8,059 nucleotides of DNA, taken from IMG/VR virus record IMGVR_UViG_2576861205_000005; one strand, 5' to 3'. Every line of letters starts with the position of its first letter. Position 1 is the first letter of the stretch. The stretch is from a virus. Lineage: Duplodnaviria; Heunggongvirae; Uroviricota; Caudoviricetes. Of this stretch, positions 2,538-8,059 are shown piece after piece. Below the pieces are notes generated by a model. It searched no databases and was not told the origin of the DNA. It saw only the letters and a program-made list of their open reading frames with translations. Position numbers and translations under genes: made by a program.

Positions 2538-2547
2538 TGGAGTGGAT

Positions 2548-5526
2548 ATGGCAGCAGTAAAAATCTCAGGTGTGCTGAAAGATGGTGCGGGAAAACCAAT
2601 ACAGAACTGCACTATTCAACTGAAGGCAAAGCGTAACAGCACCACGGTACTGGTGAACACGGTGGCCTCTGAAAATCCGGATGAAGCCGGGCGTTACAGT
2701 ATGGACGTTGAGTATGGTCAGTACAGCGTCACCCTGCTGGTTGAAGGTTTTCCACCTTCACATGCCGGGACCATTACCGTCTATGAAGGTTCCAGACCAG
2801 GTACGCTGAATGATTTTCTCGGTGCCATGACGGAGGATGATGTCCGACCGGAGGCACTGCGCCGCTTTGAGCAGATGGTGGAAGAGGTGTCACGTAACGC
2901 CTCCGCGGTTGCACAGAATACGGCAGCCGCGAAAAAATCAGCCAGCGATGCCAGTGCATCAGCCAGCGAGGCGGCAACTCATGCAACCGATGCTGCAGCC
3001 TCAGCACGTGCCGCCAGCACGTCAGCCGGACAGGCCGCGTCGTCGGCTCAGTCAGCGTCTTCCAGCGCAGGAACGGCATCGACAAAGGCCCGTGAAGCAG
3101 CAAAAAGTGCTGCTGCTGCAGAGTCATCAAAAAGCGCGGCAGCTACCAGCGCCAGTGCCGCGAAAACGTCAGAAACGAATGCCGCAGCGTCACAACAATC
3201 AGCAGCCACTTCTGCATCCACCGCGACCACGAAAGCGTCAGAAGCAGCCACTTCAGCACGGGATGCGTCGGCTTCAAAAGAGGCGGCAAAATCATCAGAA
3301 ACGAACGCAGCCTCGAGCGCCAGCAGCGCAGCTTCCTCGGCAACGGCGGCAGCAAATTCTGCGAAGGCGGCAAAAACGTCCGAGACGAACGCCAGGTCTT
3401 CTGAAACGGCAGCGGGACAGAGCGCCTCAGCTGCGGCAGACTCAAAAACAGCGGCTGCATTATCTGCCAGTGCCGCGTCAACAAGTGCCGGGCAGGCCTC
3501 AGCCAGTGCCACCGCCGCCGGAAAATCGGCAGAAAGTGCTGCATCGTCTGCTTCAACAGCCACAACGAAGGCTGGCGAAGCCGCTGTACAGGCCAGCGCA
3601 GCAGCGAGGTCTGCTTCCGCAGCGAAGACATCCAAGACGAACGCGAAAGCGTCGGAAACCAGCGCAGAATCCTCAAAAACGGCTGCCGCATCGTCCGCCA
3701 GTTCGGCGGCGTCATCGGCATCATCTGCGTCTGCTTCAAAAGATGAGGCGACCAGACAGGCGTCAGCAGCAAAGGGCAGCGCCACGACGGCATCCACGAA
3801 GGCGACAGAGGCAGCTGGCAGTGCGACGGCGGCAGCTCAGAGCAAAAGTACGGCGGAATCCGCGGCAACGCGCGCTGAGACAGCGGCAAAACGGGCAGAG
3901 GATATTGCATCCGCCGTGGCGCTTGAGGATGCGAGCACGACGAAAAAGGGGATAGTACAGCTCAGCAGTGCGACTAACAGCACTTCCGAGTCACTGGCGG
4001 CAACGCCAAAAGCCGTTAAGGCCGCGTATGAGCTGGCTAACGGGAAATACACCGCACAGGATGCAACGACAGCACAGAAAGGGATAGTTCAGCTTAGCAA
4101 CGCGACCAACAGCACATCTGAAATGCTGGCGGCAACGCCAAAGTCGGTAAAGGCAGCCTATGACCTTGCTAACGGGAAATATACTGCTCAGGACGCTACG
4201 ACAGCACAAAAAGGAATTGTCCAGCTCAGTAGTGCAACCAACAGCGCATCTGAAACGCTTGCCGCGACACCGAAAGCAGTGAAAGCAGCTAATAATAATG
4301 CGAATGGTCGGGTACCTTCTGCCCGTAAGGTGAATGGTAAGGCGCTTTCAGCGGATATAACACTGACGCCGAAAGATATTGGTACGCTTAACTCAACAAC
4401 AATGTCATTCAGCGGTGGTGCTGGTTGGTTCAAATTAGCAACGGTAACCATGCCACAGGCGAGTTCTGTTGTTTCAATTACGTTGATTGGTGGTGCGGGA
4501 TTTAACGTGGGGTCACCTCAACAGGCAGGTATATCTGAACTTGTTTTGCGTGCAGGTAATGGTAATCCGAAGGGGATTACTGGTGCTTTATGGCAGCGCA
4601 CATCGACAGGGTTTACAAATTTTGCCTGGGTCAATACATCTGGTGATACTTACGATATTTACGTTGCAATCGGAAATTATGCGACTGGTGTAAATATTCA
4701 ATGGGATTATACCAGTAATGCCAGCGTGACGATTCATACGTCACCAGCATATTCTGCTAATAAGCCGGAAGGGTTAACGGACGGTACAGTTTATTCACTC
4801 TATACGCCATCAGAGCAGTTTTATCCGCCTGGCGCACCAATCCCGTGGCCATCAGATACCGTTCCGTCTGGCTATGCCCTGATGCAGGGGCAGACTTTTG
4901 ACAAATCTGCATACCCGAAACTTGCAGCCGCTTATCCGTCAGGCGTGATCCCTGATATGCGTGGCTGGACGATTAAGGGCAAACCCGCCAGTGGTCGTGC
5001 CGTATTGTCTCAGGAACAGGACGGCATTAAATCGCACACCCACAGCGCCAGCGCATCCAGTACGGATTTGGGGACGAAAAACACATCGTCGTTTGATTAC
5101 GGAACCAAATCCACGAATAACACCGGGGCGCATACGCACAGTCTGAGTGGCTCTACGGGGTCTGCCGGTGATCATACTCATGGTAATGGTATTCGTTGGC
5201 CAGGAGGCGGCGGTTCTGCGTTAGCATTTTATGATGGCGGTGGGTTCACTTATGTCCAGGATTCACAGTATCAAGTAAGCCCGGGGACTTCTTCCCGTAG
5301 ATCGTATTATCAACGTATTCAGACACAGTCAGCAGGTGCTCATACCCACTCGCTGTCTGGTACTGCAGCAAGTTCTGGCGCACATGCACATACTGTAGGT
5401 ATTGGTGCGCATACGCACTCCGTTGCGATTGGTTCACATGGACACACCATCACCGTTAACGCTGCTGGTAACGCGGAAAACACCGTCAAAAACATCGCAT
5501 TTAACTATATTGTGAGGCTTGCATAA
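2548..5526 (+). CDS. stf: Side tail fibre protein (lambda Stf family), long variant with expanded Ala/Ser-rich shaft, tandem 44-aa repeats and His-x-His-rich C-terminal tip
   Basis: The ORF track starts at GTG 2542. I prefer ATG 2548, which has GGAG 5 nt upstream and gives [27 protein letters not shown]..., matching my recollection of the lambda Stf N-terminus. C-terminus ...[31 protein letters not shown]. The stop overlaps the tfa start (TAATG). Confidence 0.9.
3943..4290 (+). repeat. In-frame tandem repeat inside stf: 2.7 copies of a 132-bp (44-aa) unit
   Basis: Units begin at 3946, 4078 and 4210 (period exactly 132 nt). Encoded peptide is KGIVQLS(S/N)ATNS(T/A)SE(S/M/T)LAATPK(A/S)VKAAY(E/D)[15 protein letters not shown]. 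Copies differ mostly at synonymous positions; the third copy is truncated. Confidence 0.9.
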
Positions 5527-6110
5527 TGGCATTCAGAATGAGTGAACAAGCACGGACCATAAAAATTTATAATCTGCTGGCCGGAACTAATGAATTTATT
5601 GGTGAAGGTGACGCATATATTCCGCCTCATACAGGTCTGCCAGCAAACAGTACCGATATTGCACCACCAGATATTCCTGCTGGCTTTGTGGCTGTTTTCA
5701 ACAGTGATGAGGCATCGTGGCATCTCGTTGAAGACCATCGGGGTAAAACGGTTTATGACGTAGCGTCAGGGGACGAGTTATTTATTTCTGAACTCGGTCC
5801 GTTACCGGAAAATGTTACCTGGTTATCGCCGGAAGGGGAGTTTCAGAAGTGGAACGGCACAGCCTGGGTGAAGGATACGGAAGCAGAAAAAATGTTCCGG
5901 ATCCGGGAGGCGGAAGAAACAAAAAACAACCTGATGCAGGTAGCCAGTGAGCATATTGCGCCGCTTCAGGATGCTGCAGATCTGGAAATTGCAACGGAGG
6001 AAGAAACCTCATTGCTGGAAGCCTGGAAAAAGTATCGGGTGTTGCTGAACCGTGTTGATACATCAACTGCACCTGATATTGAGTGGCCTACGAACCCTGT
6101 CAGGGAGTAA
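5526..6110 (+). CDS. tfa: Tail fibre assembly protein (lambda Tfa family)
   Basis: 194 aa, [44 protein letters not shown]..., the same length and near-identical start to lambda Tfa as I recall it. Start overlaps the stf stop. Confidence 0.9.
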
Positions 6111-6159
6111 TCATTGGGATTATGCCGCAGCACGTCTTAAGCGAGAACGTGCTGCGGTT
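5946..6159 (+). repeat. Direct repeat copy 1 (tfa 3' end plus downstream hairpin), left flank of the cargo gene
   Basis: agtgagcatattgcgccgcttcaggatgctgcagatctggaaattgcaacggaggaagaa...cctgtcagggagtaatcattgggattatgccgcag...gtgctgcggtt recurs at 6995-7209 with scattered substitutions. Confidence 0.9.
6125..6157. terminator. Perfect 11-bp stem / 11-nt loop hairpin between convergent tfa and methyltransferase genes; putative bidirectional terminator or recombination-associated structure
   Basis: CCGCAGCACGT (6125-6135), loop CTTAAGCGAGA, ACGTGCTGCGG (6147-6157). There is no T-run immediately after the stem, so the terminator role is uncertain. It lies inside the direct repeat. Confidence 0.45.
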
Positions 6160-6164
6160 GGATG

Positions 6165-6833
6165 CTATTTTTTCCCTGAAGCGGAAAACATTACTACAGT
6201 ACCTTGAACCTTGGTTTTAACATTCTCGAAATGCTCTGAGAGTATATGTGTTAAGCCTTCTTCGGAATCTTTTGTGTTTGAAAAGATGCCTTTCTGATTG
6301 TAAATGCGCATCAGTTTTTGACCGAAGCTATTGTGCACAACTCCATCGCCAAGAATTGTGGCTCCGTATAGAGTTCCATCGTCAGTTAAGGCCTGCGCCG
6401 CATTGCGTATTACACAGCTTTTTGTAGATATATTTCCAGGCAGGCAGTGAAGAAGGTAAAACATGGAAATGGAATCAAATTGACCATGTAACGCCGCGGG
6501 ATAAGGTTCAAAAACATCATGGCTAATTTTATGTTTAATTTTTGATTCCCCAGCCCTTGTAGATGCCGCGTTCAGGCTAGCTTCGTTCAAATCCATTAAA
6601 GATATCAGACTACTCTCAGGTACGTGAGTAAGGTAAAACCCAGTTCCAACACCAATATCCAGATGGTTGTTACCTACATGTTCCAGAAAGTGTGGAAGAA
6701 GGTGTTCCTTTGTAGGACATCCCCATGCAAGCCGATTTGATACTCCCAAAACCCACCAGTCATAAAGCTTTAGGGTAAGTGGTGTGTAAATTTTAGCCCC
6801 ATCATCTGTGTTTTTTTTCATTGATTTCACCAT
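6165..6833 (-). CDS. Class I (Rossmann-fold) SAM-dependent methyltransferase, small-molecule/RNA/protein type; prophage cargo (moron) gene
   Basis: 222 aa. Motif I HLDIGVGTGFY; acidic post-I residue in ISLMD; motif II-like FDSISMFYLLHCLP; motif III-like LTDDGTLYG. Upstream YDWW...RLAW spacing resembles UbiE/COQ5-type enzymes. No DPPY/NPPY or PCQ DNA-methyltransferase motifs. Opposite strand to all phage genes. Start is ambiguous: the first ATG (6831-6833) has no Shine-Dalgarno, whereas the in-frame ATG at 6819-6821 (Met5) has GGTG upstream. Confidence 0.75.
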   Translation of the reverse strand: MVKSMKKNTDDGAKIYTPLTLKLYDWWVLGVSNRLAWGCPTKEHLLPHFLEHVGNNHLDIGVGTGFYLTHVPESSLISLMDLNEASLNAASTRAGESKIKHKISHDVFEPYPAALHGQFDSISMFYLLHCLPGNISTKSCVIRNAAQALTDDGTLYGATILGDGVVHNSFGQKLMRIYNQKGIFSNTKDSEEGLTHILSEHFENVKTKVQGTVVMFSASGKK

Positions 6834-6889
6834 GTTATAGTTTTATTTGTGAATTAAATCAATTATGGCGATGAATTACAAGGGGTTAA
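6834..6889. promoter_or_regulatory. AT-rich divergent intergenic region; candidate promoter(s) for the methyltransferase (minus) and the tfa-C fragment ORF (plus)
   Basis: 56 bp of AT-rich sequence (ttatagttttatttgtgaattaaatcaattatgg...) between two divergent starts. No -35/-10 was confidently assigned. Confidence 0.3.
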
Positions 6890-7159
6890 ATGCTGCCGCA
6901 GCATAGCGATATTGAAATAGCCTGGTATGCTTCGATACAGCAGGAGCCGAATGGCTGGAAGACCGTCACCACACAGTTCTACATCCAGGAATTCAGTGAG
7001 TATATTGCGCCACTGCAGGATGCTGTAGATCTGGAAATCGCAACGGAGGAAGAAAGATCGTTGCTGGAGGCATGGAATAAATATCGGGTATTGTTGAATC
7101 GTGTTGATACATCAACTGCACCTGATATTGAGTGGCCTGCAAATCCTGTCAGGGAGTAA
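6890..7159 (+). pseudogene. Truncated/chimeric tail fibre assembly protein: novel 35-aa N-terminus fused to the conserved Tfa C-terminal ~54 aa
   Basis: [37 protein letters not shown] then [52 protein letters not shown], against tfa ...[58 protein letters not shown] ribosome-binding site 4 nt before the ATG. It may still be expressed. Confidence 0.6.
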
Positions 7160-7209
7160 TCATTGGGATTATGCCGCAGACACGTCGTATGCAGGAACGT
7201 GCTGCGGTT
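6995..7209 (+). repeat. Direct repeat copy 2 (tfa 3' end plus degenerate hairpin), right flank of the cargo gene
   Basis: Homologous to 5946-6159. The hairpin here carries a 1-nt bulge (CCGCAGACACGT ... ACGTGCTGCGG, 7174-7207). Confidence 0.9.
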
Positions 7210-7273
7210 AGTTTGTGAGCTTTCGATAGTGGTTGTTATTTTTGCCCTTATTTGTTCCGGAGGCCATGGTTCA

Positions 7274-7444
7274 ATGGTCCGTCTGCCCCCTGTGGTGATG
7301 TCAGCAAAATCAGCCACTGCGCGAACCACAATAGCCCGGGAAGATGCTGAAGATCACCAGGTAAAGCTATCAGCGCAGAAACTGGAAGAACTGCTCGCAT
7401 CAATGGTTAAGGATGAGGTTGATCGCAATGATGGGATTTATTGA
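7274..7444 (+). CDS. Hypothetical small protein (56 aa), prophage-end ORF of unknown function
   Basis: GGAGG at 7259-7263, 10 nt upstream of ATG 7274. Product MVRLPPVVMSAKSATARTTIAREDAEDHQVKLSAQKLEELLASMVKDEVDRNDGIY. The stop overlaps a 14-codon ORF (ATGA junction at ~7428-7444). The longer track ORF from 7163 begins inside the tfa repeat, so I do not take that start as real. No family recognised. Confidence 0.25.
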   Translation: MVRLPPVVMSAKSATARTTIAREDAEDHQVKLSAQKLEELLASMVKDEVDRNDGIY

Positions 7445-7559
7445 CGTCAGCGAGAGCAGAAGGAAGAACTGAATAACCTGAATGATTTACGCTCAATCAG
7501 AGCGATGATGATTGGCAGTAATTAGCGGTCAATTTCGGTTTTTTTGGCTGTGCGCTCCC

Positions 7560-7756
7560 CGCCCAGCATTGCGCGTCAATTAGCCCCAAAAAAACGAAAA
7601 AGTTACAATCAAGTAAAAAATTCCTTCTGCAAAACTAAAAAAGATTTCAATAAAATCAGACAGTTAAAAACATAAAAAAAAGGTACAAAAAAACATCTCA
7701 AAGTCTTGTTTTTTGCTTCAAATACAATTGGTTATTGTGTTTTTTGAAACCTACCA
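7560..7756. other. AT-rich non-coding tract at the prophage end; candidate attachment-site arm (attR-type P arm) abutting the host ompW fragment
   Basis: About 200 bp with long A/T runs (cccaaaaaaacgaaaaagttacaatcaagtaaaaaatt...cataaaaaaaaggtacaaaaaaacatc...) and no ORF of 60 aa or more on either strand, immediately before the ompW-like reading frame. Confidence 0.4.
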
Positions 7757-7873
7757 GTCTGGTACATGGATATTGATACCACTGCCAATTATAAACTGGG
7801 CGGAGCACAGCAACACGATAGCGTACGCCTCGATCCGTGGGTGTTTATGTTCTCAGCAGGATATCGTTTTTAA
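7757..7873 (+). pseudogene. ompW: Displaced 3' end fragment of outer membrane protein W gene (ompW/yciD), at the prophage-host junction
   Basis: Translation ...VWYMDIDTTANYKLGGAQQHDSVRLDPWVFMFSAGYRF* matches the OmpW C-terminal beta-strand as I recall it, including the terminal aromatic. An in-frame TGA lies just upstream (7742-7744) and the sequence before ~7757 is AT-rich and non-coding, so only the 3' portion is present. Exact breakpoint not determined. Confidence 0.65.
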
Positions 7874-7887
7874 TTCCGCACAAAAAT

Positions 7888-7907
7888 GACCCCGTAATTA
7901 CGGGGTC
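7888..7907. terminator. Bidirectional Rho-independent terminator between convergent ompW fragment and downstream minus-strand gene
   Basis: GACCCCGTAATTACGGGGTC perfect palindrome, with AAAAAT upstream and AATAAGG downstream. Confidence 0.8.
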
Positions 7908-7931
7908 AATAAGGACATGGTATAAAGGGTA

Positions 7932-8059
7932 TTATTTCTTCGCTTCTACGCCATCAGTTTCAGAGCGAATTAAGAATTTCTCAGTTGTTTGCGGAATATG
8001 CTGAATTAGCCAGTCGGCCATGTGCTTTTCATCATTTAAAATCGCTTCGATAATCGGAA
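7932..8059 (-). CDS. yciE: 3' end of a convergent host gene, probably the DUF892/ferritin-like protein YciE (5'-partial; continues beyond the window)
   Basis: Minus-strand frame open to the window edge, ending ...PIIEAILNDEKHMADWLIQHIPQTTEKFLIRSETDGVEAKK* (stop is the reverse complement of 7932-7934). Convergent with ompW, as in the E. coli ompW-yciE arrangement from memory. Name assignment is from recollection only. Confidence 0.5.
   Translation of the reverse strand, partial: PIIEAILNDEKHMADWLIQHIPQTTEKFLIRSETDGVEAKK

Follow-up and report, generated by a model that had tools for sequence, protein, structure and literature searches.

How did a methyltransferase gene come to lie between two direct copies of the 3' end of a tail-fibre-assembly gene (tfa), each followed by a hairpin, and what part do these copies play in its gain or loss? 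The stretch of phage DNA analysed here (8,059 nt, IMG/VR record IMGVR_UViG_2576861205_000005, hereafter "the window") is the right end of a prophage resembling lambda that occupies the ompW site of an E. coli of the UTI89/ST95 type. The module is 100% identical in UTI89, S88, and APEC O1. The repeats are an ordinary scar of phage recombination: the methyltransferase gene ybcY is enclosed by a complete tfa on one side and, on the other, by what remains of the 3' end of a second tfa. The features of the locus are collected in Table 1.

Table 1. Features at the right end of the prophage (window coordinates).
Feature	Positions	Strand	Remarks
tfa, complete lambda-type tail-fibre-assembly gene, 194 aa	5526..6110	+	Pfam Caudo_TAP, E=1e-44
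Repeat copy A	5946..6159	+	Last 55 tfa codons, stop, 14-nt spacer, hairpin; weaker homology from 5934
Hairpin A	6125..6157		Perfect 11-bp stem; between the stops of the convergent genes tfa (6108-6110) and ybcY (6165-6167)
ybcY, class I SAM-dependent methyltransferase, 222 aa	6165..6833	-	Pfam Methyltransf_12/23/25/11
Spacer travelling with ybcY	6834..6994		Promoter-like hexamers and first 35 codons of the tfaX-like ORF
tfaX-like ORF, 89 aa	6890..7159	+	3' stub of a second tfa fused to spacer-encoded residues
Repeat copy B	6995..7209	+	tfa 3' end, stop, hairpin; weaker homology from 6983
Hairpin B	7174..7207		Stem of hairpin A with one bulged A
DUF4376 gene, 3' remnant	7250..7507	+	aa 119-204 of 207, internal stop
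Partial ompW, without N-terminus	7748..7873	+	Right prophage/chromosome junction; UTI89 annotation mapped onto the window
yciE	from 7932	-	After the partial ompW; UTI89 annotation mapped onto the window

The tfa repeats are beyond chance. A repeat finder pairs 5934-6130 with 6983-7179 (197 nt, 89%) and 6131-6159 with 7181-7209 (29 nt, 86%), a 1-nt indel separating both matches, and BLAST of copy A against copy B returns 89.8% identity over 215 columns. In a MAFFT alignment, homology is unbroken from ~5946/6995 to 6159/7209 and the sequence outside is unrelated; at the protein level, a weak homology reaches a few codons further left, to ~6968. The direct repeats of the tfa 3' end and hairpin reported in the preliminary description are thus real, being ~90% identical with one indel. 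It had also placed the methyltransferase and its promoter region between the copies, and nothing else is found there but the minus-strand 222-aa ORF and the 161-bp spacer. Third codon positions account for 14 of the 22 differences between copies A and B, and pN/pS is 0.22. The copies are two tfa alleles that diverged as working genes, and not a target-site duplication, because their differences are mostly synonymous.

The upstream tfa covers profile positions 1-130 of Caudo_TAP (PF02413) with 151.9 bits, above the gathering score, shares 94% amino acid identity with lambda orf-194, and is annotated in UTI89 as a tail fiber assembly protein. The Rfam family IS009 (RF02111), a putative sRNA, also matches the copy-A region (5869-6067) with 223.8 bits for a gathering score of 117, and the copy-B region (6913-7116) with 112.5 bits, just under that score. 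The sRNA status of IS009 is doubtful, however, because the family coincides with the tfa coding sequence. Downstream of copy B, the DUF4376 remnant is recognised by tblastn (60% identity, E=4e-27) and annotated as a pseudogene by PGAP. An intact homologue in another locus (L066) harbors the Pfam DUF4376 domain and sits after a tail-fibre gene; in other prophages, the DUF4376 gene occupies the position of tfa, directly 3' of the tail-fibre gene. The remnant is a third stacked chaperone-gene stub.

In hairpin A, the stem strand CCGCAGCACGT (6125-6135) pairs with ACGTGCTGCGG (6147-6157). The folding energies are -28.9 kcal/mol for hairpin A and -26.7 kcal/mol for hairpin B (z = -3.8 and -3.2, respectively), and the homologous lambda hairpin displays a compensatory change from C-G to A-T. 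The distance from hairpin A to the ybcY stop is 5 nt in all of 92 loci compared. An Rfam search at the hairpin yielded no known RNA, the only match being CssrB, below threshold (29.9 vs 76 bits). In the window, hairpin A has no U-run on either strand and a simple terminator scan makes no call; in other contexts, a U-run comes after the same hairpin on the minus strand. The earlier suggestion of a terminator fits these observations, and hairpin A may be inferred to be a terminator at the boundary of two transcription units.

Phage records name the cargo YbcY, and its nucleotide identity to the ybcY pseudogene of K-12 is 99%. Its G+C content is 0.41, against 0.50 for tfa and 0.48-0.49 for the downstream sequence, and chromosomal, non-phage homologues are found in Enterobacter. 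YbcY resembles UbiG, juvenile-hormone-acid methyltransferases, and thereby small-molecule O-methyltransferases, only weakly. A defence system or a DNA methylase was considered and dropped, given this similarity and the lack of any meaningful PADLOC hit or of any NCBIfam hit near the cut-off. Between the window and a locus in P2 context, pN/pS of ybcY is ~0.7, a value that does not clearly evidence selection on the cargo.

The spacer carries promoter-like hexamers on the minus strand (-10 TATAAC at 6839-6834 and -35 TTGATT at 6862-6857, with an alternative pair at 6889-6862), in numbers no higher than in shuffled sequence. In K-12, RNA polymerase holoenzyme and H-NS bind the ybcY/tfaX spacer, and the same hexamers have been predicted (PMC3946193). 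Phage records show the spacer nowhere but beside ybcY or a ybcY remnant. A literature search for this repeat structure met with ybcY and tfaX solely in screens for promoters and sRNAs and in Poteete 2004.

Copy B lies within an ORF of its own, similar to tfaX, and the question arises whether this second copy is merely left over or kept for a function, either as a small protein, TfaX, corresponding to the C-terminal domain of Tfa, or as an sRNA, the putative IS009. The ORF passes the Caudo_TAP score with 88.3 bits, over positions 75-130 only, and so represents a fragment; PGAP labels it "incomplete, missing N-terminus". A function would be in line with the intact 89-aa frame preceded by a plausible Shine-Dalgarno sequence (AAGGGG), which is present in 64 of the 92 loci as well as in a version only 83% identical, with the annotation "protein TfaX" in K-12, with RNA polymerase binding on the tfaX side of the spacer and, for an RNA, with the IS009 matches given above. 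However, the ORF is broken in at least nine different, independent ways in other loci (premature stops, frameshifts, and fusions), K-12 included, where it counts 61 aa. Its spacer-encoded N-terminal part has a pN/pS of ~0.56, and exchange with working tfa genes accounts for the low pN/pS of the C-terminal part. An RNA function is further weakened by the sub-threshold score at copy B and by the overlap of the IS009 family with tfa coding sequence. A functional TfaX or RNA is therefore unlikely, and the ORF is most likely a pseudogene. No full-length Tfa with the spacer-encoded N-terminus exists among 5.8 billion proteins, which contain just stubs and fusion ORFs; a tblastn search of phages for the parent tfa gave a weak extension to residue 9 in the P2-like phage RE2010, unconvincing once aligned.

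The module is widespread. Of 5426 complete E. coli genomes, 3844 (~70%) carry ybcY with its promoter spacer, at 4893 places, all with at least 95% identity. The diversity across loci, expressed as anchored, ungapped per-segment identities, was followed in IMG/VR and GTDB loci, which form a redundant and E. coli-biased sample. Over the 92 loci, ybcY is at least 97.5% identical and the junction between the spacer and the truncated second tfa (tfa') is the same in every one. The invariant unit is the hairpin, ybcY, the spacer, and the start of tfa', rather than the 215-bp repeats, and the identity of the junction indicates that this junction formed once, long ago, before entry into the prophage of the window. 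The flanks are far more variable. To the left, some of the 92 loci have a complete tfa. Others have tfa stubs, truncated at no fewer than three different points, to which other tail-fibre modules or a pin fragment are fused, and in still others only the hairpin is left, with pin+ynaE or an IpaH-type effector gene before it. To the right, the stub is mosaic and continues into DUF4376', appY-ompT, hydrolase-ompT, or IS elements. P2-like prophages have the module too, where it follows H-G or gpD. Between the window and such a P2-context locus, pS is 0.014 for ybcY, 0.278 for tfa, and 0.42 for the C-terminal part of tfaX.

Prophages devoid of cargo bear directly on the role of the repeats. In 20 complete E. 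coli genomes, a single tfa with its hairpin is joined directly to the sequence that follows position 7210 in the window, at the same ompW site that carries ybcY in about 380-437 genomes. This is the arrangement that the preliminary description had anticipated for relatives without the methyltransferase. In each of the six empty-site genomes examined, the single tfa is an A/B mosaic followed by hairpin B. The proposal that the repeats mediate loss or exchange of the cargo is borne out by these chimeric genes, which show that gain or loss of the cargo occurs through the repeats. The same polymorphisms segregate in copies A and B, so that the 20 empty sites at ompW fit an ancestral state as well as a deletion. 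No locus was found with both copies and no trace of cargo in between: among 141 adjacent direct pairs, 138 have ybcY, and of the three odd ones L225 retains a ybcY fragment, L142 and L204 consisting of tfaX and then another tfa ~4 kb on. Furthermore, Poteete et al. (2004) observed Red-mediated recombination involving the last 200 bp of lambda tfa and both DLP12 copies (PMC545071).

Taken together, a mosaic joint at the prophage's right end, made of the moron ybcY and an allelic tfaX stub and spread by homologous recombination, is in our view the probable origin of the locus. ybcY would be a leftward gene, transcribed from a promoter of its own within the 161-bp spacer and ending at a stem-loop that would also close the rightward tail-fibre operon. 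The right-hand repeat would come from a second tfa allele, of which the 3' stub tfaX remains, and would have been made once and long ago. In the founding join, we infer that a phage arm composed of tfa, hairpin, ybcY, and promoter was linked to the middle of another phage's tfa by illegitimate recombination; the faint protein similarity left of 6983 blurs its exact breakpoint. Homologous recombination within the hairpin and the conserved final 150-215 bp of tfa would afterwards have spread the nearly invariant core, given it new flanks, and caused its gains and losses, probably through unequal crossover between phage or prophage genomes, or through excision as a circle and re-integration via the repeats. 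Recombination at the tfa repeats is itself shown by the comparative patterns and by published experiments, and recombination among tfa genes of different phages, as first proposed from the window, is supported. That both repeats include the hairpin would be explained by the origin of the distal part of copy B in the tfa-hairpin-DUF4376' end of the resident prophage. The DUF4376' stub would be an older scar of the same kind, so that the locus would form a stack of 3' stubs from successive replacements of tail-fibre modules.

Two other explanations invoke a dedicated element. ybcY could have entered as a mobile cassette or transposon whose insertion duplicated a target of ~215 bp, namely the tfa 3' end and hairpin, a possibility that had also been raised in the preliminary description. 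The position of the cargo, exactly between direct repeats, and the existence of a one-copy "empty site" would suit it. Yet the copies are just 90% identical, with a synonymous bias that makes them two alleles and no fresh duplication, and there is no integrase, transposase, or terminal inverted repeat in or beside the cargo. The left copy is missing in some loci and in others is cut short at various points or parted from the hairpin by other genes, and the core stays intact. The right junction is the same in all loci regardless of context, and copies A and B recombine independently with other alleles. No element is known to us that makes a 215-bp target duplication. Insertion of this kind is largely refuted and very improbable. 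A remnant of an invertible tail-fibre region of the Gin/Cin/Pin type, the second tfa being an alternative chaperone gene, finds some echo in the related phages PhiR68_2 and Kati, in which tfa and ybcY are separated by a serine recombinase gene of the PinQ/PinR type, and in the pin fragments fused to tfa stubs in some left flanks. But the copies are direct and not inverted, none of 231 loci has an inverted tfa pair, and the window contains neither an invertase, nor significant inverted repeats around the region, nor a gix-like crossover site at up to 3 mismatches. Copy B is moreover without a partner tail-fibre C-terminal segment. On orientation, site, and invertase, this explanation is rejected, as exceedingly improbable.

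A bolder extension of the mosaic joint would hold that the tfa 3' end and hairpin are a selected "portable homology arm", that is, a recombinase-free cassette system working across unrelated phage families, possibly with a working TfaX peptide or RNA as a variant. This is unlikely; if true, the arm would allow ybcY to leave as a circle and to enter any phage whose tfa is of the lambda or P2 type, and other cargo abutting the same hairpin, such as IpaH-type effectors and pin-ynaE, would perhaps be mobile likewise. With the mosaic joint as such, the locus, in which a cargo of almost no variation lies amid far older mosaic parts of a conserved structural gene, is a clean and quantifiable case of temperate phages gaining and shedding host-derived genes, and the occupied and empty versions of one prophage provide a natural system for recombination-driven cargo turnover. 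Annotation also benefits: tfaX-type ORFs and the DUF4376 fragment can be labelled as stacked 3' stubs, and IS009 matches as tfa coding sequence.

The repeat layout is already known, being catalogued as tfaD-ybcY-tfaX in K-12, and it reveals no new mechanism. The DLP12 prophage of K-12, tfaD-ybcY-tfaX(-appY-ompT), shares with the window the gene order, the orientation of ybcY opposite to tfa, the nearly identical ybcY, a left copy 97% identical, the hairpin-ybcY spacing, an identical spacer/tfa' junction, and an N-terminally truncated direct tfa (tfaX) downstream. In contrast, ybcY is a frameshifted pseudogene in DLP12 and intact in the window. The short tfaX of DLP12 diverges ~145 nt into the repeat and is followed by appY-ompT without a second hairpin, whereas copy B of the window spans the stop codon and hairpin before the DUF4376 stub and the ompW junction. 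Phage lambda also possesses a tfa (orf-194) and a homologous hairpin, differing in the loop besides the compensatory pair, followed by leftward accessory genes (ea47). With one tfa and no ybcY, it represents the unduplicated version of this boundary between late operon and b region, its homology to the window stopping at ~7213.

Lambdoid morons, a concept of Hendrix and Juhala, are autonomous promoter-gene-terminator units of lower G+C, located between sequences that are adjacent in relatives, and their transcription does not depend on the late operon. In the window, the flanks are those adjacent in the 20 genomes without cargo, and the G+C of ybcY is lower; the spacer would hold a candidate promoter, with hexamers at the level of shuffled sequence, and the hairpin 5 nt past the ybcY stop would be a candidate terminator. 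Most described morons, however, are not enclosed by long duplications of part of an adjacent structural gene. Another parallel is virulence cargo near tail-fibre genes, such as the sopE cassette, which Salmonella phages of both the P2 and the lambda type share, and the effector loci in lambdoid prophages of O157. Such cargo lies just 3' of the tail-fibre and chaperone genes and moves from one phage family to another, unrelated one. Similarly, ybcY is found both in lambdoid and in P2-like prophages, and beside an IpaH-type effector, but it is a different gene with no virulence role known. Finally, in PeSL, which are units of ~50 bp with promoter and hairpin present many times per genome, short stem-loop regulatory repeats flank variable genes and offer homology for gene insertion, deletion, or swap. 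These promoter/stem-loop elements have been termed "mobile regulatory cassettes" in T4-type phages (PMC2839356). In the window, the homology is instead the 3' end of a conserved gene with a putative terminator, in two copies.

The window is 100% identical over its 8059 bp to the right end of a lambda-like prophage carried by UTI89, S88, APEC O1, ATCC 11775, and many other E. coli, which is integrated at ompW. Some relatives (L104, L106) have genes of the Rha and Ash families between the DUF4376 stub and ompW'. The product of stf is 994, 1008, or 1056 residues long in otherwise near-identical prophages, and the repeat region of this gene (2926-4321) therefore expands and contracts. A 45-residue "hypothetical protein" listed by RefSeq, overlapping the tfa end, hairpin A, and the ybcY 3' end, is most likely a spurious call.

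Features of the prophage right end, in window coordinates
Feature	Coordinates	Strand	Remark
J C-terminal part, then lom			left part of window, ahead of stf
stf	2542-5526		side tail fibre gene
stf short repeats	2926-3810	+	many, Ala/Ser-rich
stf internal repeats	3926-4321	+	three 132-nt units
tfa	5526-6110		tail-fibre-assembly gene
IS009 (RF02111) match	5869-6067	+	tfa 3' part, copy A
Copy A	5946-6159		tfa 3' end and hairpin A
RefSeq 45-aa ORF	6083-6220	+
Hairpin A stem	6125-6135, 6147-6157
ybcY	6165-6833	minus	class I SAM methyltransferase
Spacer	6834-6994		161 bp
tfaX-like ORF	6890-7159		short, tfa-like
IS009 (RF02111) match	6913-7116	+	tfaX stub
Copy B	6995-7209		tfa stub and hairpin B
40-nt motif	7210-7235		degenerate version
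DUF4376 pseudogene	7250-7507	+
ompW, partial (3' end)	7748-7873	+	right prophage/chromosome junction
yciE			last gene, after partial ompW

Copies A and B each comprise the last 55 codons of tfa, the stop codon, a 14-nt spacer, and a hairpin. They align continuously at ~90% identity save for one 1-nt indel, while the flanks beyond them are unrelated, and only the methyltransferase and the 161-bp spacer lie between them. The direct repeats recognized in the preliminary description are thus real, as is the perfect 11-bp stem of hairpin A. Two origins had been offered for them, recombination between phages or a cassette that duplicated its target. The coding parts of the copies differ at 22 positions, 14 of which are third codon positions, with a pN/pS of 0.22, indicating divergence between functional tfa alleles rather than decay of an in-situ duplicate. 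Since, furthermore, the cargo comes with no transposase, integrase, or terminal inverted repeats, the target-duplicating cassette is ruled out, leaving recombination between the tfa genes of different phages as the supported alternative. A third reading, that of an invertible segment, is ruled out as well, as neither inverted tfa copies nor gix-like sites were found (tfa orientation was checked among 231 loci).

Loss or exchange of the cargo through the repeats, also anticipated, is borne out by sites devoid of ybcY. When the 7210+ sequence was appended to tfa with repeat A to make an artificial empty-site query, 20 complete genomes gave an uninterrupted match; a single tfa joined directly to this sequence hence exists. 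The first such query was at least 80% covered in 381 genomes, and, among the matches listed, all but two were in two pieces spanning ybcY; window 5526-8059 was at least 80% covered in 437 genomes. The six empty sites fetched all lie at the same ompW site. The 3' end of their single tfa is mosaic, combining variants of A type and B type, and hairpin B and the DUF4376 stub come next in every case. Such mosaics are the expected product of crossovers inside the repeats, in either direction; because the left copies of occupied loci are polymorphic for the same variants, the mosaics leave the direction, gain or loss, unfixed. Among the 231 loci, adjacent direct tfa 3' pairs enclose ybcY in 138 cases, with 3 odd cases lacking an intact ybcY; a clean locus with both copies and no cargo, the pattern that would dissociate the duplication from the insertion, was not found. 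Other derivatives include one locus without the right copy and one DLP12 remnant without tfaX. In phage Ayreon (L100, 2769-3117), where a tfa stub, the hairpin, and 36 nt of ybcY run directly into part of the spacer, ybcY has undergone an internal deletion in which the repeats played no role. In L225 (4505-5216), tfa is joined to a 167-nt internal ybcY piece and the latter to the distal segment of copy B; either a complex deletion or an artefact of assembly could account for this.

The 92 ybcY loci compared, taken from phage records, GTDB genomes, and IMG/VR, share an invariant core, in which 5 nt separate the hairpin from ybcY (at least 97.5% identical) and the spacer leads from there into the initial ~120 nt of the tfa stub (tfa'). 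The spacer-tfa' junction is identical in all 92, and was therefore formed once. To the left, most loci harbor a full lambda-type tfa; in others, a tfa 3' stub cut at differing points is fused to an unrelated tail-fibre gene (2G7b and Ayreon types) or to a pin fragment, or the hairpin alone follows pin and ynaE (PhiR68_2) or an IpaH-type NEL effector, itself preceded by a DUF4376 gene in the tfa position. This E3-ligase effector gene (L066, 4985-6628; also L087, L089, and L090), from Shigella flexneri and some E. coli, sits between the DUF4376 chaperone gene and the hairpin-ybcY-tfa' unit, so that the same hairpin also borders a type III effector. To the right, several tfa alleles contribute to a mosaic stub, which is followed by DUF4376' and ompW (as in the window), appY-ompT, a hydrolase gene and ompT, or IS elements. 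P2-like prophages also carry the module, near smpB after the H and G genes (L229-L231) or after gpD with a tfa stub only, the unit being followed by dinI (L228-L231). There, ybcY is 98.9% identical and the flanks 81-93% identical, indicating that the unit crosses phage families. Between the window and a P2-context locus, tfa has a pS of 0.278 and the C-terminal part of the stub one of 0.42, against 0.014 in ybcY; the core is thus much younger than its surroundings, the signature of a unit spreading by recombination in its flanks.

Hairpin B has the stem of hairpin A with a bulged A, and both fold far better than shuffled controls. In lambda, tfa is closely followed by a homologous hairpin that faces ea47, a leftward gene, and a compensatory C-G to A-T change preserves the stem. 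In at least eight other left contexts (IMG/VR), homology begins exactly at the stem base, preceded by an A-run; read on the minus strand, these display a stem followed by UUUUU, the canonical intrinsic terminator form for leftward genes, whereas neither copy in the window has a good U-run. Judging from sequence, the hairpin is best read as a putative terminator at the boundary of the rightward late operon and leftward accessory genes, its conservation allowing it to double as an edge for recombination. The conserved motif GGCTGGTGAACTTTCGATAGTG is often found to its right. A conserved 40-nt motif, GGCTGGTGAACTTTCGATAGTGCGAGTATTGAATGATTTC, often follows the hairpin at many otherwise different prophage ends (IMG/VR L112, 7191-7226; L118, L124, L129, L183), and its degenerate version follows hairpin B.

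Among 5.8 billion proteins, no full-length Tfa shares the spacer-encoded N-terminus of the stub, and the stub would therefore most likely have begun as an illegitimate join of a "...tfa-hairpin-ybcY-promoter" segment into the middle of another phage's tfa. The 89-residue ORF is intact in 64 of the 92 loci and elsewhere broken in at least nine different ways, K-12 included; its spacer-encoded part evolves almost neutrally (pN/pS 0.56, window versus P2-context locus), and the stub is very unlikely to be functional. Copy A is matched with 223.8 bits, and the stub with 112.5 bits, by Rfam family RF02111 "IS009", described as a putative E. coli sRNA; the latter score falls just under the gathering score of 117 (L005, 4857-5055 is also listed). 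As the family seemingly derives from tfa coding sequence, it is questionable whether it represents an sRNA. Further right, a third stub in the same orientation encodes the C-terminal 86 residues of a DUF4376 protein, with an internal stop. In other prophages, an intact DUF4376 gene (L066, 6808-7431; 207 residues) directly follows the tail-fibre gene, in the tfa position, which suggests that these proteins are an alternative tail-fibre chaperone class. The locus is hence a stack of tail-fibre chaperone-gene 3' stubs and, given the several independently truncated left stubs and that of DUF4376, such joins recur.

The methyltransferase is named YbcY in phage records. With its spacer, ybcY occurs at 4893 places in 3844 of 5426 complete E. 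coli genomes, each at 95% identity or more. Its sequence looks like that of a generic small-molecule methyltransferase; the resemblance to UbiG and juvenile-hormone-acid methyltransferases is weak, and signatures of defence systems or DNA methylases were not found. Enterobacter homologues (62-64% amino acid identity; L094-L097) are chromosomal and not prophage-borne, convergent with an M3 peptidase gene and adjoining a short-chain dehydrogenase gene; they may represent the host source. Together with the lower G+C of ybcY (0.41, versus 0.50 in tfa), these features point to a host-derived accessory gene. The predicted -10 hexamer of the K-12 ybcY promoter, TATAAC (6839-6834, minus strand), directly abuts the annotated ATG (6833-6831); use of this promoter would make Met5, encoded by the second in-frame ATG (6821-6819), the probable start of translation.

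It is standard for temperate coliphages to carry cargo after their tail-fibre genes and to have mosaic joints where conserved genes end. The K-12 cryptic prophage DLP12 has the same arrangement, tfaD, ybcY (a pseudogene), and tfaX, then appY and ompT. Beyond this known module, the present analysis defines the invariant core, contrasts its age with that of the flanks, counts the empty sites, and reads the locus as stacked chaperone-gene stubs. Independent experimental support for repeat-mediated exchange comes from Poteete et al. 2004 (PMC545071), in which the last 200 bp of lambda tfa recombine via Red with tfaR and with both DLP12 copies, there called ybcX (tfaD) and an "unnamed gene fragment" (tfaX). 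The element is an annotated K-12 module present in most E. coli, the two homology patches of which were the recombination targets of that 2004 paper.
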